Source: Yuukianura sp. NJ FZ-2021 (lineage: Eukaryota). From it: DNA of 64,000 bases. The position numbers and the translations under genes were made by a program. Under the pieces are notes generated by a model that ran no database searches, was not told the origin of the DNA, and saw only the letters and a list, made by a program, of their open reading frames with translations. The stretch spans positions 1,860,001 to 1,924,000 of the forward strand of contig CM102283.1 in NCBI GenBank assembly GCA_046563655.1. Direction: 5' to 3'. Positions 2,186-63,853 of this stretch are shown here, one piece after another. The first letter of the stretch is position 1. Every line of letters begins with the position of its first letter.

Positions 2186-5100
2186 TTAATGATCTCCTCG
2201 AAGTAGCTCAAAGAGTAAGTTGAAACCGGAAGAATCTTCTGTTTTGGCTGTTAGCATGTCTTTCCCAACCTGAGAAAAATAACAAAAACAACATTTTTTA
2301 CTCATTCAGGTTGAACTCTCACCACAAAACTATTTTTCTTCCATTTTAACGATGTTTTGTAAACAACATTTTTAATTAAAAGTGAAACTCACTTGGCAAA
2401 TTCGTTGAAGCTCAGGAATTTTGAGAAGCAGTTCTCCAAATTTGGACGGAGACTCGGGACACCGGGCGATTGTGTAGGTTTGTAAACATTGTAAAAGCCT
2501 CTCTTGAGATTCACGCACCTTGTTCCCCTCTTGAAGTTCATCCACTTCTACAAAATTCAAAATCAAAATATGAAAAATCAAAATTTTCTATTTTTTTTAA
2601 CTTTTTGACAAACTTTCAAAAATATTTGGCAATTTCACAGGAAAACTGACCTGATGACATGAGAATAATAACTTTGAGAGCAGCGTACTCCACTGTATCG
2701 AGACGCAGTCGCCTCAAATTATCTGCAAAGTGGATCATGCGCGTAATGCACTGATTCCCATGGGCATCGTCCTCTCTCAAGGTCAACCGCTCATTAATTC
2801 GAATGTGACCCGACGGCATTGGAATAGAACGGTAGCAACAGGAGAACAGGAGAAGCTCACACCAAGAATTGAGTAACAATTTAGTCTGGTCCTCAACCTG
2901 AACAATAAAAAAACAAGGTATCAAATTCCTGTTTCCAAAATCAAAATCTCAATTTCTTCAAAATTGAACATCTTAAGCTCCTACCTGGATATTTTTAAAA
3001 AGCGGAAGCGATTTGCACCATTTGACGAGACGGTAGAGACGTCGATCAGCCGCTGAGCAGAGTTCAGCCAAGTAATCAGCCGCTCTCGTGCTGTTTCCAT
3101 TCGTATTTGTACTCGAAGTTCCCCGGGAGGACGGAAGGTCACCTAAAGTGAGCGGATCTCCTTCAGCCGATAAGTGCCACAGAGATTCACACTCGACAAT
3201 TTCTTTCAGTAGATTTGGAATTTCCCATGTCACGGCACTGTTTGGACTGGATTGGGGGCAGGGGTCACCGGACGAAGAAAACGGACCACCAGAGGTCACG
3301 GGTGGCAGGGAATAGCTGCATGCATACGTACTCCTCCCACCCCTTGTTCTATCCTCCCGAATCGCTAAAAAACAAAAACAAAATTGTAATTTCAAATTAT
3401 CACCAAGAAAAAGCCATTCATTCCCTTAAAAAGAGCATCCACAAAACCAGCTCAGGCTTTTTGAAAAGACTTCTTCGTCGGATACCGTAAAACTTCTAAT
3501 AAGCTCCCGATTTTTACTAAAAATCTAAATTCTGAGTTACTAACCCCTGGCGCTTTTTCGCTAGTTAGAAACCCGGGTTTATTAGAAGTTTTACGGTAAA
3601 CTCATCATGTTGAGAGCCTCCTTTAAGCAAATGGAGTCTCTCCACAAGGTAAACTCAAGGCAATAAACTTCTTGAGTGCGTTTGCTTTTTGGTCATTTGG
3701 AAGATGTAAGATGGAAGAGATGCAAATGTGATAAAAACGACTGACTGTTGTGTTGCGTTTGTACTTAAAAAGGCTTTGTTCCGAAGAGAGGTGACTGAGG
3801 AGAGGCACGCAGAGGAGGGGCATTGCTATTACGCCGCTCAAGGTCATTCCCTCGGTTCAATTCCCAACAAAGGCAAAGAATAAAAAAAAATTACACGTGG
3901 TTCTCCAAAATCATAAAATTATTCCCTGCTTGGCGCATTGTCAAATTTTTAAAAGTAACAAAAGAGCATTTTCTGAAAAACTTTCTGAGAAACTGTGATG
4001 AATCGTGTGGAATTGAACAATGGAAGCCGCACACACTTCTTTGACCTCACAAATCTCACCCCGGCAGTCGTGAAATTCAAAATTTTGAGATAACAGACAA
4101 CCTAGTAATTCAAAATTTTGAAAATTTTCGTTAACTCTCACCTTCCAATTTCATTCCGACTCTAAGGCACTTGTCGAACCGACAACCCGGACACTTTTTC
4201 CTAGTAGACACAGCGACCTGAAAAGAACAAAGACAATACGAGGTCAAACTTGAGACTTGATAATTGAAGACTTAAGTAAAGTGTTAGGTAGCGGGAAATT
4301 GAATTTGGAATTCAAAATGGCAGTGGCTTACATGGCACGAAGCTCCGCGAAGGCACACATAATTCTTGCGATTTTGAACTGTTCTCTTGAAGAAGCCTTT
4401 ACAAGACTCACATGAGAAGATCCCGTAGTGAAACCCTGAGATACGATCACCACAGATTGGACAGGGACTGTAATTATTAAATTTCAAACAAAAGAATTAC
4501 AAACTCAGACTCTCAATTTTCATCTTTCATCTGCTCAGTAAAAAGTACAACACAGATCAAACGATTACCGAAAGCATACTTATCAAGTAACAACTTTGTG
4601 CCGCGAAAATGTAAATTTCAAAACAAAAAACTACACTTTTCAAACTTTTTCCAGTTAAAAACTAACCTGTTGATTAACTGCTGTCGAGATACCCCAGAAG
4701 TCAAATTGGACGTAAGTAATACTTCTTGTTGGTCAGCATCTAAAATCACAAAGTAAATGTAGTCAGCATTTTTTGTTGTCACATTATTCAGACGGGAGGT
4801 CACGGGTCATCTTGGTCAAGGATCTTGTTTGCCAGGATAACGGGTCAATTTGGTCAAAGGTCAACCGGTCAACGGTTAAAATGAATCTTGGTCAGAATAG
4901 AGAATATCCAAAATCCAAACTTCCCACAAGATTCAAATTCCAGAAGAAATTATTGTCAACTTTTTGAACTTTTTTTTTGCCTACATTTGACATTTTGAGT
5001 CAAAATTTTTGACTTACCAAAATCTTCAACTTTGATTCGATTTTGATTATGAGTGAGGAGGGGAGAGTTGGATGGTGACGGTGGCGTAGTATTGTTGGAC

Positions 5101-15740: not shown

Positions 15741-15827
15741 GCCCAGATGAGCCTCGCTGGTGCGGGGTGAAAGCTTCAAACTTTCGGCTGATTAACGTCA
15801 GAGGGGTTCGATTCCTCCTTCTGGGCG
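15741..15827 (+). tRNA. trnaSec: tRNA-Sec (selenocysteine, anticodon UCA)
   Basis: GCCCAGATGAGCCTCGCTGGTGCGGGGTGAAAGCTTCAAACTTTCGGCTGATTAACGTCAGAGGGGTTCGATTCCTCCTTCTGGGCG folds into the eukaryotic 9/4 Sec structure: 6-bp D stem with TGGT loop, 6-bp anticodon stem with CTTCAAA loop, long variable arm and G discriminator. An oligo-T run follows at ~15841. Confidence 0.95.
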
Positions 15828-39900: not shown

Positions 39901-42444
39901 TTCGTTTTTCTTCCCGCTTTTTTTTGAACATGACAGTAATGACTCTCGAGGAAAGTCAAAAGGACAAAATTCAAAAGATGAAACTGAAGAAAGTTCTTTT
40001 GTGTATCCAAAGTAAATTCTTTTATTTGGATGAAACCTGAGACAATGTCTTAGATCTTTCGTGTGTTAAAAGCAAATCAATCAAGAAACTCTGAAAGATA
40101 CTTTCACCGAATATAAAACCAACCGCGCCCAAAAAATTCAAAAGTTGCCGCTCTTTGTACATACGTTGTGCAGAATTTGACTATTCAAAAAAAGAAAAGC
40201 CAGCCGGAAATGAAGCGACGTTTCTATTCTTTACGTTCACTTTCACAATGAATCACAATTTCACAATTTCTCAAAAATTGAGTTTTTGAACATTTTCCAC
40301 CAGATTTGAAGTTTGGAAGTTCATTGTGGAAGTGGAGAAGTTCAAAATTCAAAAATTGATGCTCCAAAATAAGTCTGACGGTGAAAGCGAAAAATAAATG
40401 TGAAAGTGAAAGCGAGAACACAGAACCGCACTCTGTGTTAACTTTATTTGCATCTTTTGATCTTATCTTTTCATGATCCTACTTAGCAAAAAGCCTCTTA
40501 GGCATTAATTAGACTTTTACTTTTAATTGGTTCATTAAAGCTTTTGAAATGACATTTTCTCCTTGGTTCATTTTTCATTGAAAGTGCTAATTGGGTAGCA
40601 CCAGCATAAAAGGTGGGAGAACTGAAAAGAGCGGGCAATTAATAGTTTGAAAATAGCGTGACATTTTTCGAACTAATTTCTTCTCGCGCGTTTTTTTTTC
40701 TTTGCATTTTTACCTGTACGAATGAAACGGCTCGGATCGCATGTGACGGGAAATTGAGAACGAGAAAAACGGTGGACACGAGCAAAAGTGTTTTGGTGAC
40801 ACGAACTTCAGCGGCGGATGACGCTTGGCCACATCTGAGCCCTCCACCTCCTCCTCCTCCTCCGCCTCCTCCTCCTCCTCCATGTCCAGGAGGCGATCTA
40901 CAAGTACGTCTCTGCCCACTGAAGATTCCTGGGAGTCTGCGTGACCTTTGACCTGATCCGTTACAAGTAGTGCAACACAATGTACTACTCGTTGTAGATG
41001 CTCCGTTTTGTAGAATTGGACCTGGATGGGATTGGGCCACATTGAGACTGATGGTTACACGGGTTTTGTCGGCTGAATTGATGGAGTTGGATCGATTCAT
41101 GGTTGAAGAAGCTGCAACGATAGTTTCTCGTTGACCTTTGAACTTCCAGACGCATAGGGTAATTCGAATGTTGAGAAACATTATGGCAAAGAAAGGAACA
41201 ATGAGAGTGAAAATGGTGTCCAGAGTGTTGGCGGTCATGGAGAACTCGTGGTAATCGTCTGGAACGGAACACACAAACTGAATGTGTGTGTAACTCCCAT
41301 TGCTGTCGGTCTGATTTTGAAAATCTGAAAAAAAAATGACAAAACCGTACAAAATTCACCTTCCTAACTTTCACCTTTTTCACCCCCTGAAAACGGGGAA
41401 AAAATTAATATTTTAGAAAACGGTTTCAAAAAATTCCTAAACCAAAGGAAAAAACAAATTGGATTTTCAATTCAGTGATCAAAAGAATACAGGAGGTAAA
41501 AAGTACACAGATTTTAAAAACAAATAAAAATAATATACGTTACACAAAATACACGCATTCAAAAAACACAAGTATTAAAAATACACACGTCTTCAACAAA
41601 ATTACCGACATGGTACTCGAAACACACTCGTCAAAAAACTACGCAAATCCAAAAATACATGTACCTACAAAACACGTACTAGAATACACACCACGGATCC
41701 AGAACAAGGTTTGTTTACTTTGATTTTCTAAAAATAAAATACACTTTTAGTTCGAAAAACCACCCCGCTTAAATTGTTTTTAGGTTAAAACTTTTTTCAT
41801 TTTCATCAAAATTCTTCAAATTGAAACTGTTTTCGACGCTACAGTTTGATACTATTTTAAACTTGCTATTATTAGCCAAAATTAGTGTATATTCATAAGT
41901 GGAACAACTTACCTGTCAAAGACAGTGACCCACTTTCCGTGTTTACTCCACCGCCGTGCCCCACACTATCGTAGTCTGGTGGGTTCAGCTCCACCGCAAT
42001 CGGAATCACCGCAGCTATGACCCACACGTACGAAAACACCACCAGAGCCACCACCGTCAGAATTCCAATCACTCTCTTGGCTCTGGCCACAGTACAGACG
42101 GTGGGTCGAGTCAACGGATACACCACAGCACAGAATCGTTCACACGTAAATGCCACCACTAACCACACCGACAGGAAACAAGTCACTTGACCCAGGTACA
42201 TGATGAGTGGGCATGTCACTCGCGTGGTAATGACTTCGTAGCCCTTGTCACTCAACCACACTGCAAATAAGTTAATTAGAAATCCCGTGTCGGAGATGGC
42301 CAGAGCTGCCAAGTAGTAAGATGAAGACAGATTGCGGTGACCCGAGGTCATGAAGAACACGGCCACTGAGAGACTGTTCCCAATAGCACCGAAGAGGCAG
42401 AGCGGTGGAGTGTAAAACTGATCCACGGTCTTGGCCAACTCCAT
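36974..42444 (-). CDS. CNMaR: Class A neuropeptide GPCR, CNMamide receptor-like
   Basis: Exons 42444-41913, 41324-40714, 37432-36974. Motifs FYTPP..GAIGNSLSVAVF, LSSSYYLAALAISDTGFL, FLSVWLVVAFTCERF..V.YPL.R..CTVARAK, VTKTLLLVSTVFLVLNFPS and TNFSVNFLLYCVSGRNFR. Poly-Gly in ICL3. An upstream exon is possible (acceptor at ~42476). Confidence 0.82.
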
Positions 42445-44672
42445 GATCTTTTGACGTGGGCCGACGACCCAGAGCTAGAAAAAGTAAAAGCAAAGGTCAT
42501 TAATCTTTGGAAGAATGATGAACATGTCAGGTTGAGTAGCAGAGGAGCAGAAAAAAACTTTTAGCCTAACGTAAACTTGTGGTAGGTTAACCTTAATATA
42601 ACCTGAAGTGTTAACATAACTTGAAGAGTGTTAGGTTAACCTAAAACGACGTCAGTAGTGACGAGGCGGGAAACTTCAAAACCAAACACTTTTCAAAAAA
42701 AAAGTTTCGAACGGGAGAGCAAAAATTGGAGTAGGGCTTAGCAGCTTAAGTTCGTTGAGCGACGTATTTTCAAACTTGAAGACAAAGCGGCCAACCGAAC
42801 CAAAATTTCCGACTGGAGAAACCCTAAAAAGGTCGAAATTTTGAATTCACTGTTCAAAATTTTGAATTCACTTTTCAAAATTTTGAGAACAAAGCAAACC
42901 TATGCTATACTTTCCAAACTTACAATTAGTCACTACATAAGCAGCTTATTATTCTACTCCATTCATGTAGGTATTCATTATATTAAAACCCGCTTTGTCC
43001 TAAATATTCTAAAGTTTCTAAAGAAATAAATGAAAGTCTGAAATTAGCAAATTATTTTTATAATAGTCTTCTTCAGTAAATCGTAGACGTGCGTCTGCAG
43101 AAGACTAAAAAGCAATTTTCGAATTCAAAAAAAAGAATTTTTTTTGCACCTTTTGAGAAAATAGGCGGTTTTTCTGGAAGAGCTAACAAAACACACGATC
43201 GTTTTAATTGCGCAAAAAACTTCACAAATACATTCACAGTGAACATAATATTAAAAACATTTTTTTTTAAATTCAAATGACTTGAGAAATTAAAATTAAC
43301 CAAACTTTTCTGGAAGAGTTAACAAAGGCACGCGATCGCTTTAATTAAAAAAAAAAACTTCACAAAAGGTTGAAGGGTAAAGACAAACTTTTTCCGAAAT
43401 TTTGGAAGTTTTCAAAATGTCAAGAGATTTTAATTAAGCTGTAATTCCAAACGGATGGTGAGGACCATTGTTCAAATGATATTTCTTTGAGTTGTACTTA
43501 CGTTAGTTTAATGTTAATTACAAAGGTTAAGTTTGGGTAATTATAATACCGTAATCGTAAGTGAGAGTGAAAGCTGACGTTGTTCTCACAATAATACGAT
43601 TTAACTTGTGCCAAATGACGCTTGTACCTCTCTTTTAACAGTAAAATTAAACGTGTTTTGTTTTCTTAAGGCGATTTTTTTCCTAAATTGGAAAACTGAA
43701 GTGTTTACGAAAGGCCTTCCGGCAGAACTCTGCTTTCTAGAGTTGTTCGCTCAGCGCCGAAACCGTAAAAAGCGAAAGGTTAGAAAAAGCGTCAGCGCTT
43801 TCTTGAATGTTGCTTTATAATTTAAAAATAATTTAAAAATTTAATTGAAAATTTGAAATTGAACTGATCTTAAGATTTTTAATTTGCTTTTGATGGGAGC
43901 TGTGACGTTAAAACTAGGGCTGTTCATGTTCCGGTATCAGAACTTATTTAATTATTTCCGGTGTCGTTTCGTTTCCACATTTTTTGGAAACGAACTTTCG
44001 GTTCCGTTTCCGTTTCGGTTCCAGAGTAGAGACACTACAGTTACAAGAACATTTTGAATTTGAAGTGGCTGAAACATAACGAGCGAATAAACAAAAGTAG
44101 TGTGACACATAGTCACATTTTATAAATTTCAAAAGAAAAGTTGAAAATACACCAAAAGTTGTTCAAAAAGTGGCTCACCTCAGTACTAATGGCAATTTTG
44201 GGTATGAGAAAATAAGTTTTCAAAAAATTAAATTTATAAGCACACAGCACTCAAGTAATTAGAGAGAACGCTGAATGCTTGATTCCAGCACATTACATTA
44301 GTATTGGATCCAGAATTTTAAAAATTGGCTTCTCCAGTACAACACACTCCTGACGTCCTGTTCCGCTCAAATCGGATGTTGAAATGAACCACTTTTTTGG
44401 CGTCGGAAGGGGATGATACTGCTCTAGTGTAGGAGAAAGGGTGATTGACGCCGCCGCGGTTCACCGGACGGTGGAACAACGGTTCCACGGTCATTAAGGT
44501 GGCATTGCGGCAAGGGCCATAGGCATAATGGTCTCCGTGTGGAGGCTACTGTGCCTTTAATGTTCCAGAATGCTGTCAGTACTTTACTTTGTGGACTTTA
44601 CTTTATTTTTAATGGGCCTGACTTTAGTTTTTTTTAGCAATTCTATTTTGTATTTTGCTAGTTTTTATTTGT

Positions 44673-57493: not shown

Positions 57494-57787
57494 TGTTTTA
57501 TGTTTGACATCGATTTTTTGTGAATTTTAAGTTTTAAACTTTATTGTTATTCAAATAGTGCTGGTTGAGTTCGAATCAGTTAAATTAATTAGTAATTAAG
57601 ATTGAGTGTGTTGAGTATCTCAAAATTAAGTGGTGGCAGATTTGTCATGTAAAAGTAATAAGGAGCGTAATTTAATTTCTTTGCTTACCTTGTTTTCAGT
57701 ACAATTGAATGACAGTTGAATGTCGTTTCTCTTTCGTATTTTTAGGACCTGCAAGAGATAAATGACGACTTGGTGATTCCAGGCAGA

Positions 57788-60700
57788 ATGAAGCTGGAAA
57801 CTCATTGTTTACTATGCCAAAAGCTGTCGTTACAACTAGCAAATTCTCAGGATCCGACAACTAAAGGCTGGAAGAAGGCATGCGCTGATTCCATTTGCAG
57901 TTCACTTCGAATAACTGGCAAGCCGATTTGCTCTGTTTGGTTCAAACGGGCAACGTACTGCGAGGACTGCTACCAAACCTTTTGTGACTTTGAATTTATT
58001 GAAAAATCGATCCAGCGTCTTCAAAAACGTCTTCAGGAGATCACTGAAACTGCAGAACAATTGATACTGAAAAATGTCGAAGATTTGGGTTCCGGGGAGG
58101 ATAGGACGGGCGAAGAATACTTTGAGGCTGTGAAATTCATTGGCCGTGAATTGAGTCGAAGAGGGAAAAATACTTTTGACGATGACATTGACGATGGGGG
58201 TATCGGCTTTCGATCGGCAGTATTGCAATCAGATGAGATTGAAACAAATTATGAAGTTAAGACTGAAGTCGACTGTGACCCGTGCGACGTTATTTACAAT
58301 GATAATACTGATTACTTTCCTGTTTCTGCATTCAGTGAAACAGAATTTCGCAGCCAGTCTGGATCTGATCCGGAGGAAGATCCGCTTGGAGGACATAGCG
58401 GGCCAGATTCTCCGATTAATCAGGAACAAGTATCAGAAAGACATCCTCCCTCAATTTCAAAGAGAAGTACCAGACAAGGTTCGCGATACCTTCGGAATTC
58501 TTCGGGACCTAATACAACTTCTGATGCTGCATCAATCTCCGCAGCATCCTCCATGTCAATGGCAATGCCAATACAATCTACTTTAGGAGGACGTTATCGT
58601 CGGATTGCTCCTGCGCCATTTCCACGCGTTCCTTCACCTTCACCACCACAAGAAGTTCCATCAAAACCAACACCTTGTAAATTGGATCTTGAACGAAGTA
58701 TGGCACGACGACATCGACGTTGGAAATGGTACAGCCGTAGAGCTCAGCGCAGGACTAATACCGACGCTCCAAAAATAATCAACTCTGCTGCTATTACATC
58801 AACAGCACTAATCACAAACGTTGCTCCACGTCCACCTATAGCACCAGTCTTAGCTCCTACACCAGCACCAATTACGAACTTAGCTCCAATTATGCCACCA
58901 CTCACACAAGTTGCTCCAAGTAGAAGAAGAACACCAATCACAATAGGTCCAGCCAAGACACCAGTGTACAGTACATCTGCAGCGAGCGCCAGCGTATTAA
59001 ATTCATTACCACTTCGTCGAATTGCCCCAGCTCCATCTCCACTGCGATTCCGTTTCCCTCTCCCCCTCATCCCCATTGCACCAACACCTCCCCAAATTCC
59101 AGTAACTTCAACTGCCAGATCAACGTCAACTACTGTCGGACGACACCGTGATCTGGCTCCCTCCACATCCATACCGGAAACCGCGCTCTTGCCAACTCCT
59201 TCCCCAACTTCGTCGCCAATTCGCTATGTATTAGGCTCTATGATTTCTGGAAACAAGTAAGTTCAAAACCTTGACGACGTTTACGTGTAGTTAAGGCGTG
59301 TGCAAAATGTAACACATGTGCATTGTAAAATGTGAGATGTATCAATGTAAACTATTTCTGACGTACATGTACACACAAATCAAGTTTAACTTTTTCTGGT
59401 TTTAGTATACTACCATCGTTGCCGTTCTGGATGCCTGATACTTTTGGTGGAAATGTGATACGTACAAATAATCCAATGACGCAACCGCCAGCACTTATTC
59501 CCACGATACGGCCAGAAGTAATTGATATTGACATGAGCGACACTGAAGCACCAGCGGATGTTGATGTTGATCCTGCTGATTCTACCGTGCTGGATTCAAG
59601 CCCTGGAATTCGCAGTATATATTCAGCCATTACAAGCAGCACACTTCCAGCGATATCTTGTACTGTTCCTCAAGTTCTGCAAACATCGGCCGGAAAGAAA
59701 GTGAAACCTATGAAATCGAAGAAGATACGTTGCAATTATCTCAACTGCAAATACGAAACCTCTGCAAAGTTCCCTTACGTTTTAGATGCTCATGTTCAGC
59801 AAGTTCATCATGGAGGTGCAAAGCCGTTCCGTGTCTCCTACTGCAACGAAACTTTCAAGACAAGACATAATTTAAACGAACATGTCAACAGAGTCAATCG
59901 AAAACCAGTAAAACCGTCTCCAGTAGAAGTCGTTGATATTGACTTAAGTGACGGAGAGGCACCTTCCGAAACTAACGTTACGGGTTCTAAGTTAGTTAAA
60001 CTTAGAACTACTCGCCGAAAGTATTTAACAAGGAGTACGACCAAGTCAAATACTTATCCAGTTCTGCCAAAACGACCGAGAATAGAATTGAATCGACATC
60101 AGTGGAAGAGGCTATATTGCAGTTACGAAAACTGCGATTACAACACGCTGGAAAGGTTTGAGCACCTCTTAGCCGCTCATGTTCGAAAAGTTCACGAAGG
60201 AGATCAAAAGCCGTTCCATTGCTCCGATTGCACCAGAAGTTACACATCAATGGCTCGTTTGACCGACCACGTCAAAAAAGTTCACAGAGACCCAGTGATT
60301 TGCCCTTGTCCCCATTGCCCGCGTACTTTCAAATATCAAACGTCTCTTGATAACCATATGAAGTGTCGACATCCATATCCACTAAATACTGCTCGTTCTT
60401 ATCCCAAATGCAAGATATGTACGAAAATGTGTCGAGATGAAGCAGAGCTGGCAGCACATGAGGATTTACACAACGTTCCAGCTGATGGCGAAAACGTTTT
60501 GTCTTGTGTTCTCTGTACAACTAAATTCAGTTCGGACGTTGAACTGGGACGACATGTGAACAGAGTCCATGAAGATGAGTACCGGACAGTTAAGTGTCCC
60601 GACTGCGATGAATTGTTCTTCCGCAAAGAAGAGTTACGCAGTCATGTCAGAAATAACCATACCAAAAGGGATCCAAAGTTCAAATGCACAGTTGCTGGTT

Positions 60701-63248
60701 GCGATTTTGTGGGAGTAGGTCCCTCGTCTTATGCCGGTCATAAAATTTCACACTCAATTGCTAAACCGTTTAAATGCATCCGACCGAATTGTAACAAAAA
60801 GTTTAAGCATCAGCGAGGTCTGGACATACATACGCAAGTTCATGCGATGAAGGATAAACTGATTGAGCCCAAATTCACATGCTCCGTTTGTTCCAGAGGT
60901 AAGCAAAACTCTGACTTATTTTTGAAAAGTAAAAACTAAAATTTTGAATTGTTTTGAAATAGGTTTCATCAGGCAGGATTCGTTGGTTACGCATATGCAA
61001 AGTCACAACAACTTAAGGCCATTTCTATGTGACCAATGTCCAATGGCATTCAAGGCCCTTCCTTCTCTCACCAAGCATGTTTGGAGACACGCTCAACGTG
61101 CAGCTTTACACACATCTCCAGAATTTGACGCATCAGAGAATCAGGAAAGGCGTAGACAACGGAATCCAGCGGACCAAACTGCAATAATTGGTGAGTTTGT
61201 GCCAACAAAAGAATTTTTGAGTGTTTCTAATTCACCATTGACTTTGTTTCTGTTGACAGGTGACTGCTGTAAAGTCTGTGGAGACACTATGAATTTGGTT
61301 ATCGTTGGGTCTATAACGACGTGTTTCCCCTGTCGTATGTTTTTTGAGTATCATGAGACCAGCAAAACCAGCAATTCCGTTAAACTAAAGACCACTAACC
61401 GTATATGCGACAATGGAGATTGTACAATTACGACAGAGACGAGGAGTGATTGCAAAAGCTGCCGACTCAAAAAGTGTTACGCCGTAGGAATGAAAATTGA
61501 GGGTGAGTTTAAAAAAGTGAGGTCACTCCCCGCTGTAAATTTAACATTTTCTAATATATTCTATAAATGGTTTATAACGCAAACTCCGCAATATCCAAAC
61601 TTATATTTCTTATGTCAGATTATATCAAACCCGTAACAGAAGTCAGGATATCTTACCGTCGTGGCAAATCGCGATGTAAGAATGATAAGCCAAAGCCACG
61701 GTCCGGAAATTCTGAAACACGAGAGGAGTGTCCAATTTGCTTTTCCAAAAGTAGTCGAATTGGAGACGTCTTTGGTGCGACGGCGTGCCACAATTGTAGA
61801 AGTTTCTTTGCAAAAGCGACACAGCTTAACCGTGTGTTCAAATGTGCTTTCGACAACAACTGCCAGTTCACTCCAGAACGAGACGTCTATTGTGCAAGTT
61901 GTCGTATGCAAAAATGCATTGCTGCTGGAATGAAGACTGAGGGTAATCAACTAAATTAAAAAAAAAGTTCAAACAAATATTTCTTTCTATTTTCAGATCT
62001 TTTACTAACCTTTTTGATTACTTTTCTAGCGGTAGGAGTCAATTCTGTGTCACTAGTGACAGGAAAATGTCCTGTTTGTGAAAGGGATATGGAATTGAAA
62101 AACTTGTTTGGTGTCCTCGCATGTGCAAATTGTGGTCGCAATTTCTGGATGGCTGTTCGTCTCAACCGGCCGAAGAGTTGTCCAAAAGAAGTGCCATGCA
62201 GGAATCTACGGTCTTGTCATGGATGTCGCTGGACAAAGTTCGTACAAGCTGGATTTAAGCCCGAATGTAAGTGTATTTGCATCCTATAAAGTAAAAATGA
62301 GGAGTAAAGATTAATTTTTTGAAAATTTTCTGACTGGTATTTTTTGTAATTCAGTGGTGAATTTGCCAAAGGGAGTAATGGAACCTGTTCAAACAAGCTA
62401 TACTTGTGCAGTATGTGGTGATGCTGGCAAGCATCGGTGCCGTGACGGACGTGTGTGTGGCAGTTGTAGTTTATTTTTCAGTAAAATTACTGTAAAGGAG
62501 GCTGTGCCGGTTTGTACCAAAGGCGGGAACTGTCCCATTGACATGCTCACAAGAGTGGACTGCAAGGCCTGTCGTCTTCAAAAGTGCTACCAAGTCGGCA
62601 TGCGCCGAAGTAAAGTTGTCGTAAAAACATTTTTAAAGTAGAACTTTCCAAATAGTGTAAATTGATTGGTTGTTTGTGGTGTGTACAGCAAAGGCCTATA
62701 CGAGACGAACGGAACCGGACGGGTCTGTGCAAAATTGTAAAATCTGCGGTGACGTTTCCATTGGAAGTCGCTATGGAGTCCAATCCTGTGAATCTTGTTC
62801 CTTCTTTTTTATGAAGGGAAGTGGTAGGGACTTTGGAGACTGTATGGTGACACACGGAAACTGCGAAATTACGAAGGAAACACGCACGAAATGTCAACCT
62901 TGTCGTATGGCCAAATGTGTTGAGCAGGGCATGAAGAAAGGTCAGATTTAAAAAAAATGAAACTAACAGAATATCACAGTGTTTTGATTACGTTAATTGT
63001 TTTTTTTCCTAGCTCCTGAGCGAAGACGACTAGGACGAATTCCTAAAGATTCAGAAGAGGCTCGTGCCTTAAGGAAATTAATCAGCAACGCTGCAGCGGA
63101 ACCTGCTGAAGCTGCTTCCGCTGAAGCTCAAAATACTGCTGAAAATGCTGATGAGCCGCCGCAGTTTGCTCTGGAATTGGTTTCAGTTCCACATGAAAGC
63201 CCCGCCGGAACCACCTACTCATTTTCGTTGCCCGCAAATGAGTGGTAG
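57788..63248 (+). CDS. ~1578-aa chimeric transcription factor: ZAD-like C4 domain, Pro-rich region, 12 C2H2 fingers (one degenerate), five tandem nuclear-receptor-type DBDs, no LBD
   Basis: Nine exons join in one frame with GT-AG introns: 57788-59256, 59406-60898, 60963-61190, 61260-61502, 61619-61942, 62030-62266, 62355-62609, 62689-62940, 63013-63248 (4737 nt). Each DBD has CxxC...CxxC..F and C..C...CxxCR..K...G(M/F). Confidence 0.85.
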
Positions 63249-63853
63249 AACTTTCGTTTAGGTCAAAGGTCAAATTGAGATTTTTGGCAACAAATATTTG
63301 ATTTTGATACATAGTAGTAGTGATGTAAGAAACGAAAGTTTTGAAACTTTCAAAATTGTGGTAGAGTTTTTTTTTTAGAACAAATGTCGCGTTTAGAATT
63401 CACTAATTTTTGTTACTTTTTTTTAAACATTTGTTGTCCATTTCTAATTAGTGAGAGGTTTATATCTTGATTTTCATTGGTCAAAGTCAGAGTTACGAAA
63501 TTAAATGTTTCATTTCCACAACGAATCATCTAGGAATTTGGTCCAAGAATTTTCTTGGACCAACTTCCATACGAAGTTTGAAGAGCAAGGAAAATATTGT
63601 TGATTTGATAATTTTTCTAGGGATGTTAATTGGTTGAACCAAAGTTTCCTCACCACCTCACCTCTTTATTAATGAGTTAACTAATAATTAATCATTAATT
63701 AGGAATAAATGTATTAAAAAATCTGAGTCGACCACATTGAAACTCTTAATTTTCCTTGTGATCTGTTTCCTGTAGCTTTCGACTTGTAATGATTTTAGTT
63801 GATCTTTGAAAGTTATTAAGAAAGCGTTGATCTCCCTTTGAATTTTGGACAAG

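Follow-up and report, generated by a model that had tools for sequence, protein, structure and literature searches.

Nuclear receptors have, in their textbook form, one DNA-binding domain (DBD) and one ligand-binding domain (LBD), with receptors that carry two tandem DBDs (2DBD receptors) being the known exception. Here, we describe a locus in the genome of Yuukianura sp. NJ FZ-2021 (GenBank assembly GCA_046563655.1) that probably encodes a 2DBD-type array of receptor DBDs enlarged to five domains, lacking an LBD and fused to C2H2 zinc fingers. The locus occupies positions 57788-63248 of a stretch of 64,000 nucleotides (nt), namely positions 1,860,001 to 1,924,000 of the forward strand of contig CM102283.1, which we refer to as the window and in whose numbering all coordinates are given. 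An initial annotation, made from the sequence without database searches, had proposed a single gene at this place, joining a ZAD-like domain and 12 C2H2 fingers to five receptor-type DBDs. In outline we consider this reading a likely one, with nine exons forming one protein-coding gene whose product would be a nuclear zinc-finger protein of 1578 amino acids (aa) without an LBD, although several of its details require revision.

Rebuilt from the window sequence, the nine + strand exons and eight introns between 57788 and 63248 yield a coding sequence of 4737 nt and 1578 aa, identical in length to the frame claimed initially, and the sole stop codon in this frame is its final one, TAG at 63246-63248. 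The introns (149, 64, 69, 116, 87, 88, 79 and 72 nt) all have the form GT...AG and are phase-compatible. Exon 1 (57788..59256) starts at the first in-frame ATG, at 57788, after a stop at 57743-57745; it ends in phase 2 and lies in a stop-to-stop open reading frame (ORF) of 504 aa (57746-59260). This ATG has an A at -3, and the stop upstream of it is the TAG of a tttttag, equally possible as a splice acceptor, such that an unseen 5' exon may lie further upstream. Exon 2 (59406..60898) encodes two copies of an acidic motif and C2H2 fingers 1-10; finger 11 is shared half and half between exon 2 and exon 3 (60963..61190), which goes on with finger 12 and a linker with basic and acidic parts. There then follow five exons that encode exactly one DBD each, namely exon 4 (DBD1, 61260..61502), exon 5 (DBD2, 61619..61942), exon 6 (DBD3, 62030..62266), exon 7 (DBD4, 62355..62609) and exon 8 (DBD5, 62689..62940), before exon 9 (63013..63248) closes the frame with a C-terminal extension containing RLGRIPK, an Ala/Glu-rich tail and the TAG stop. 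The GC content of the exons is 0.42-0.50 against 0.21-0.35 in the introns, a difference seen for all eight, and retention of any one of seven introns would introduce an in-frame stop, the exception being intron 3. A second in-phase acceptor for exon 5, noticed by eye at 61640, would give a protein of 1571 aa, seven residues shorter and otherwise unaltered. Polyadenylation signals are found after the stop (ATTAAA at 63500 and the first AATAAA at 63704), and a sequence scan found no AATAAA between 57788 and 63248.

The receptor-type character of the 3' half is well borne out by a Pfam scan, in which all five repeats exceed the zf-C4 cut-off (PF00105, 21.1 bits), with scores of 40.6, 51.5, 23.2, 53.4 and 64.5 bits for DBD1 to DBD5. 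Chance ORFs were considered as a source of these matches and rejected, given Pfam E-values of 1e-5 to 1e-17 on five consecutive exons of the same strand. Each DBD keeps its eight zinc-binding Cys residues, 40 of 40 overall, around which the spacing varies. DBD1 has the pattern C-x2-C-x14-C-x2-C followed by C-x4-C-x9-C-x2-C, a D-box of four residues and, in the DBD alignments, an insertion of 8 aa between the two zinc modules; DBD2 has a first-finger loop of x15 and is preceded by a basic linker of 45 aa, the first loop being 14-15 residues long in each of DBD1-3. DBD3 is the most degenerate, with a second module of C-x5-C-x5-C-x2-C, in which the loop has five residues rather than nine, and a Phe that replaces the Cys after CRxxK. 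Canonical spacing (x13; x5, x9) is confined to DBD4. DBD5, with a six-residue D-box, is the nearest to canonical receptors, being matched at E<=0.001 by 88 distinct solved receptor DBD sequences in the PDB, the best of which is the NR1D1 DBD (1a6y, E 4.9e-14). The recognition helices from DBD1 to DBD5 read CFPCRMFFEY, CHNCRSFFAK, CANCGRNFWM, CGSCSLFFSK and CESCSFFFMK, and the spacers between successive DBDs are 45, 21, 25 and 23 aa. As the domains are just 22-39% identical to each other in alignments, and the DBD exons share no DNA repeats beyond a short conserved CRxxKC...GMK stretch, the duplications that gave rise to them must be old; a recent tandem duplication was rejected as no DNA repeats were found.

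Exons 3-8 are all in phase 1 at both start and end. Because every DBD exon is symmetric in this way, any subset of them could be skipped in frame, and the 1578-aa form might then be one of many products, with isoforms carrying differing sets of DBDs on one C2H2 body. Such a gene would be compatible with the single-gene reading, and the one-domain-per-exon layout of exons 4-8 suits it well. The argument is, however, purely structural, and exon duplication by itself would leave symmetric exons behind; we regard a repertoire of this kind as rather unlikely.

Evidence that fingers and DBDs belong together comes from the region in which they meet. Finger 11 was said to be split by an intron, and the split is real: the end of exon 2 (...CSVCSR) and the start of exon 3 (GFIRQDSLVTHMQSH) join across intron 2 to complete, exactly, a regular C-x2-C-x12-H-x3-H finger. 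Retention of intron 2 would end the frame at 60937, and a textbook finger 11 is obtained only via the proposed splice. Downstream, a stop-to-stop ORF at 60926-61636 spans finger 12, the linker and DBD1 even in unspliced sequence, because intron 3 (61191..61259, + strand, GT-AG) is 69 nt long, a length divisible by three, and free of in-frame stops; the frame therefore runs from finger 12 into DBD1 whether this intron is spliced or retained. Its GC content of 0.348 is lower than that of the exons on either side (0.461 and 0.424), and its donor and acceptor are good consensus sites, in agreement with the 69-nt in-frame intron that had been placed between the last-finger exon and the first DBD exon. 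Inspection by eye of the ORF list and translation revealed neither an in-frame stop nor a Met in the stretch from the last finger to DBD1's first Cys, and a full DBD1 is therefore not translatable without the finger exon. The finger exons have no stop codon of their own. The C2H2 array and the five zf-C4 domains thus probably form one coding unit, for which the DNA evidence is good if indirect, and the fusion that had been proposed is supported.

The same junction bears on a reading in which exons 1-3 form a C2H2 gene and exons 4-9 a second, LBD-less gene for several DBDs, each with its own transcript; the two would be neighbours in head-to-tail order, and the joined frame would be incidental to this. 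In its favour, 46 of the 47 proteins with multiple DBDs that we found elsewhere (see below) have no C2H2 fingers, which makes the free-standing form the commoner one, and the finger-DBD junction is read from DNA sequence. Against it stand the open, in-frame intron 3 with its good splice sites and the stretch free of stop and Met codons that leads into DBD1; moreover, the halves are just 69 nt apart, with no AATAAA in the gap. We consider two separate units highly improbable.

With regard to the C-terminal part of the protein, the LBD family Hormone_recep (PF00104) has no match in any exon, nor in seven downstream + strand ORFs at E<=1, while as a positive control the LBD exon of a canonical receptor elsewhere in the window was picked up at 35.8 bits. 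The claim that the gene lacks an LBD accordingly holds for the gene itself and for the downstream ORFs up to the window end. Exon 9 has no match to a Pfam family, including at E<=10, or to a PDB sequence. Its RLGRIPK motif resembles, we presume, the extension found in NR1-type receptors.

The N-terminal region does not bear out the initial annotation. Exon 1 encodes a C-x2-C pair at aa 7-10 and another at aa 57-60, a predicted long helix and then ~390 aa with a high content of Pro, Ser, Thr and Ala. Pfam has no family matching it, whether at E<=0.01 or E<=10, and for the N-terminal region there was no match to zf-AD (PF07776) even at E<=10, no match among PDB sequences, and phmmer scores below zero against three ZAD-bearing proteins. 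A single-sequence AlphaFold2 (AF2) model of the region has a pLDDT (predicted local distance difference test) of 64.9, with only the helix at 68-100 confident, and a Foldseek search of the PDB with this low-confidence model gave no match at E<=0.001. In an Atlas search, a cluster in which 30% of the members carry zf-AD appeared at rank 11 with a score of 0.86, which is a lead only. The 'ZAD-like' designation is hence unsupported by Pfam, PDB sequence, AF2 or Foldseek, its remaining basis being the C-x2-C...C-x2-C pattern and the helix. In general plan there is nonetheless a likeness to the ZAD-C2H2 proteins of arthropods, which likewise have two C-x2-C motifs ~46 residues apart at the N-terminus and continue through a helix and a disordered linker to a C2H2 array at the C-terminus, and the Cys-pair geometry resembles that of the ZADs in the proteins P0001 and P0022; the present protein differs from them in having no zf-AD match at E<=10, no fold support and an additional zf-C4 array.

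As for the C2H2 fingers, exon 2 scores 57.2 bits against Pfam zf-C2H2 (PF00096, cut-off 25.2), and exon 3 has a zf-H2C2_2 match of 24.9 bits, under the cut-off of 40. A regular expression identifies nine fingers of canonical spacing at aa 762-1010, to which inspection by eye adds two of the form C-x4-C-x14-H-x4-H (aa 599 and 728) and one degenerate unit (~aa 633) without two of its ligands. Of the 12 fingers counted initially, about 11 are intact, nine canonical and two long-spaced, while the twelfth is the degenerate unit, making that count a generous one. Exon 2 also contains the acidic motif EV(I/V)DID(M/L)SD(T/G)EAP twice, each copy standing ahead of two fingers, the first of them long-spaced. 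The two copies correspond to a DNA repeat (59514-59552 and 59925-59963, + strand) that is 77% identical and shows an internal duplication of the motif-plus-two-finger unit. We take the motif to resemble a SUMO-interaction motif.

Among described systems, the closest comparison is with 2DBD receptors. These occur in Spiralia, Nematoda, Echinodermata and Cephalochordata and fall into the groups 2DBD-NRA/B/C, with P-P modules of EACKK, LPCKS or EACKS followed by EGCKG or EGCKK; the accessible portion of this account names no arthropod and no receptor with three or more DBDs (Wu & LoVerde 2023, PMC10497141), and the five P-boxes found here fit none of the P-P modules given in that portion. DBD4, DBD5 and the extension align colinearly with 2DBD proteins from the echinoderms Diadema and Anneissia and the hemichordate Ptychodera; identity is 36-41% across 164-189 aa, and DBD4 lines up with the first receptor DBD. 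In the tight 2DBD receptors that we parsed, the spacers are 20-26 aa long, with one exception of 15 aa, a range that includes three of the four spacers here (21, 25 and 23 aa). Of 64 tight 2DBD receptors, 52 have a [FLIM]GR motif after their last DBD, and in the present protein this motif follows DBD5 and no other DBD. The resemblance thus comprises tandem zf-C4 domains on one chain, short spacers, a colinear DBD4-DBD5 pair and [FLIM]GR after the last domain, whereas the differences are that 2DBD receptors have two DBDs, a hinge and an LBD, while this protein has five DBDs, no LBD that we could find and an N-terminal C2H2 array. The helix CEGCKGFFRR dominates the second DBDs of 2DBD receptors. 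The NR0 (knirps-type) receptors of arthropods and nematodes, which have one DBD, no C2H2 fingers and no LBD, are similar in possessing a receptor-type DBD without an LBD, but the five DBDs argue against simple membership of that group.

A profile search with the five DBDs across 1.84 billion representative proteins returned 9464 matches at E<=0.001, the best 150 of which were analysed; this subset is enriched for multi-domain proteins, as scores sum across domains. By a strict domain filter, 38 of these best 150 representatives contain 3-6 DBDs (47 by a loose filter), and another 64 are tight classical 2DBD receptors. The proteins with three or more DBDs, hereafter poly-DBD proteins, include examples from Caenorhabditis brenneri and C. 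briggsae, the mites Medioppia subpectinata (P0038) and Dinothrombium tinctorium (P0046) and the cephalopod Argonauta hians (P0050), as well as further predicted proteins (P0032, P0033-P0037 and the C. brenneri entries CAL2034586, CAL2034588, CAL2034589 and CAL2035663). Several are encoded on contigs that barely exceed the ORF, for example 878 aa on 2703 nt, and in these the DBDs lie in one uninterrupted frame and not in a stitched gene model; several others may be gene-model fusions. Three of the C. brenneri proteins, CAL2034589 (P0037), CAL2034588 (P0049) and CAL2034586 (P0141), have neighbouring accessions on one 17.9-Mb contig, which hints that DBD-only genes or exons are clustered locally in this nematode. 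In all ten poly-DBD proteins tested, Pfam finds zf-C4 only, and the canonical recognition helix is present in just nine of the 137 DBDs parsed from the set.

C2H2 fingers accompany the DBDs in one of the 47, the C. briggsae protein CBG19506 (P0058), where they come after the DBDs, in contrast to the present gene in which they precede them. The initial annotation had called the architecture one that its author did not recognise; the poly-DBD half of that statement is tempered by the 38 of 150 above, while the rarity of C2H2 fingers together with several DBDs stands. A full-text literature search, which had most subscription journals outside its scope, found no description of receptors with at least three DBDs or of a protein combining C2H2 and zf-C4. 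The accessible part of one study, on the C4 proteins of tardigrades, deals with tandem gene duplication and not with multi-DBD proteins (PMC12941274), and the accessible part of another contains nothing on zf-C4 repeats (PMC5291267). Searches with the finger half brought no ortholog: exon 2 has generic C2H2 matches only among longer proteins, at 22-36% identity, and no relative in a metagenome scan, and a metagenome scan with the ORF of finger 12 and DBD1 recovered one locus (L001), whose match is limited to query residues 1-45, the finger part.

As regards the relationship between these proteins and the present one, both have 3-6 zf-C4 domains per polypeptide and mostly non-canonical helices. 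The best match, P0032, has six DBDs and no LBD and aligns over the five DBDs at 31% identity. We claim a likeness of kind and no orthology, because a second register of P0032 scores almost as well as the first and because no stable partners emerge for the DBDs in a tree; nor do the other members of the set show position-by-position orthology, and the [FLIM]GR extension is found in none of the 38.

Several observations weigh against reading the locus as a single gene for a five-DBD protein of 2DBD ancestry. The exon junctions are read from DNA, and a single transcript is what we infer from them. No close ortholog, and no copy of the protein itself, was present in the public protein collections searched. 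DBD3 barely passes for zf-C4 at 23.2 bits. A FastTree phylogeny of 192 DBDs has long distances (1.6-3.9) and no stable partner for any of the five, and hidden Markov models (HMMs) of the first and second DBDs of 2DBD receptors score nearly equally on all five (55.0/52.3 bits for DBD4 and 65.7/61.1 for DBD5); as these models do not discriminate, descent from a 2DBD pair is at most putative. Since the window ends 752 nt past the stop, a distant, alternatively spliced 3' exon may yet contribute an LBD. Finally, in DNA-bound structures of receptor DBDs, contacts with bases and backbone are made by the Lys of the P-box and by a basic pair directly behind FF, and all five recognition helices here are without that Lys and that pair. 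Classical half-site DNA binding is therefore unlikely, DNA binding of any form by the five-DBD array would be an assumption, and the suggestion that the protein reads very long DNA sites, which was pure inference, finds no footing in helices that lack these features of CEGCKGFFRR.

In a further reading, the locus would be a chimera that is dead or was never expressed, be it the result of a recent accident of exon shuffling or a copy in decay with its frame still open. This would suit the lack of an ortholog and of the protein itself in the public protein collections searched, the degenerate DBD3 and the non-canonical helices, yet we judge it very unlikely against 1578 codons open over nine exons with eight intact pairs of splice sites, the retention of all 40 zinc-binding Cys residues, an array old enough for its DBDs to have diverged to 22-39% identity without accumulating stops, and the finding that divergent helices are the usual condition in poly-DBD proteins.

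The remainder of the window is gene-dense, with genes of short introns. On the - strand at 2619-4496 lies the canonical nuclear receptor mentioned above, whose DBD is split by an intron between its zinc modules (ORF pieces 4287-4496 and 4134-4271) and has a canonical helix, and whose LBD exon (2619-2948) gave the PF00104 match that served as control; its exon at 2976-3425 contains a divergent REDRTRGGR stretch that presumably recalls the Ftz-F1 box. A THOC3 gene at ~13.8-15.0 kb (kilobases) has its best match, taken over the entire gene, in the springtail Allacma fusca (66% identity), with many other animals at ~55-62%, which weakly suggests an arthropod, perhaps a relative of springtails; just downstream of it is a tRNA-Sec (15741-15826, + strand; Rfam RF01852, 71.1 bits against a gathering score of 47). 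A rhodopsin-family receptor occupies 40639-42474 on the - strand (PF00001, 51.3 bits), and the exon for its third loop encodes a run of 13 Gly.

Returning to the single nine-exon gene, which we prefer, its product would consist, from N- to C-terminus, of a Cys4 region whose fold is putative, followed by an extended disordered stretch with two acidic repeats after it, then about 11 C2H2 fingers that are intact and five zf-C4 domains in tandem, with one phase 1-1 exon for each, and lastly the receptor-type extension with RLGRIPK and an acidic tail. Its 3' half may go back to a true receptor gene with tandem DBDs; the LBD of that gene would have been lost and its symmetric one-DBD exon multiplied long ago by exon duplication, and the resulting array would then have become joined to a C2H2 gene. 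The protein could act as a constitutive, ligand-independent chromatin or DNA-binding factor, in which the C2H2 array would provide the sequence reading and the five zf-C4 modules would add non-canonical contacts to nucleic acid or protein.

A broader reading, which we put forward only tentatively, is that the gene is a member of a wider, undescribed class of LBD-less poly-DBD receptor relatives, present in mites, nematodes, cephalopods and here, in which the DBD would be a repeatable module much as C2H2 fingers are; in this case the array would have been joined to C2H2 fingers, and its symmetric exons would allow isoforms. If the single-gene reading is true, five DBDs with no LBD and a C2H2 array would mean that the receptor DBD can act as a repeatable, shuffled module, and the protein would be a natural test case for the way in which zf-C4 domains in tandem engage DNA when their reading helices are altered. 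With dozens of poly-DBD proteins standing unremarked in public proteomes, the question becomes testable in several phyla.

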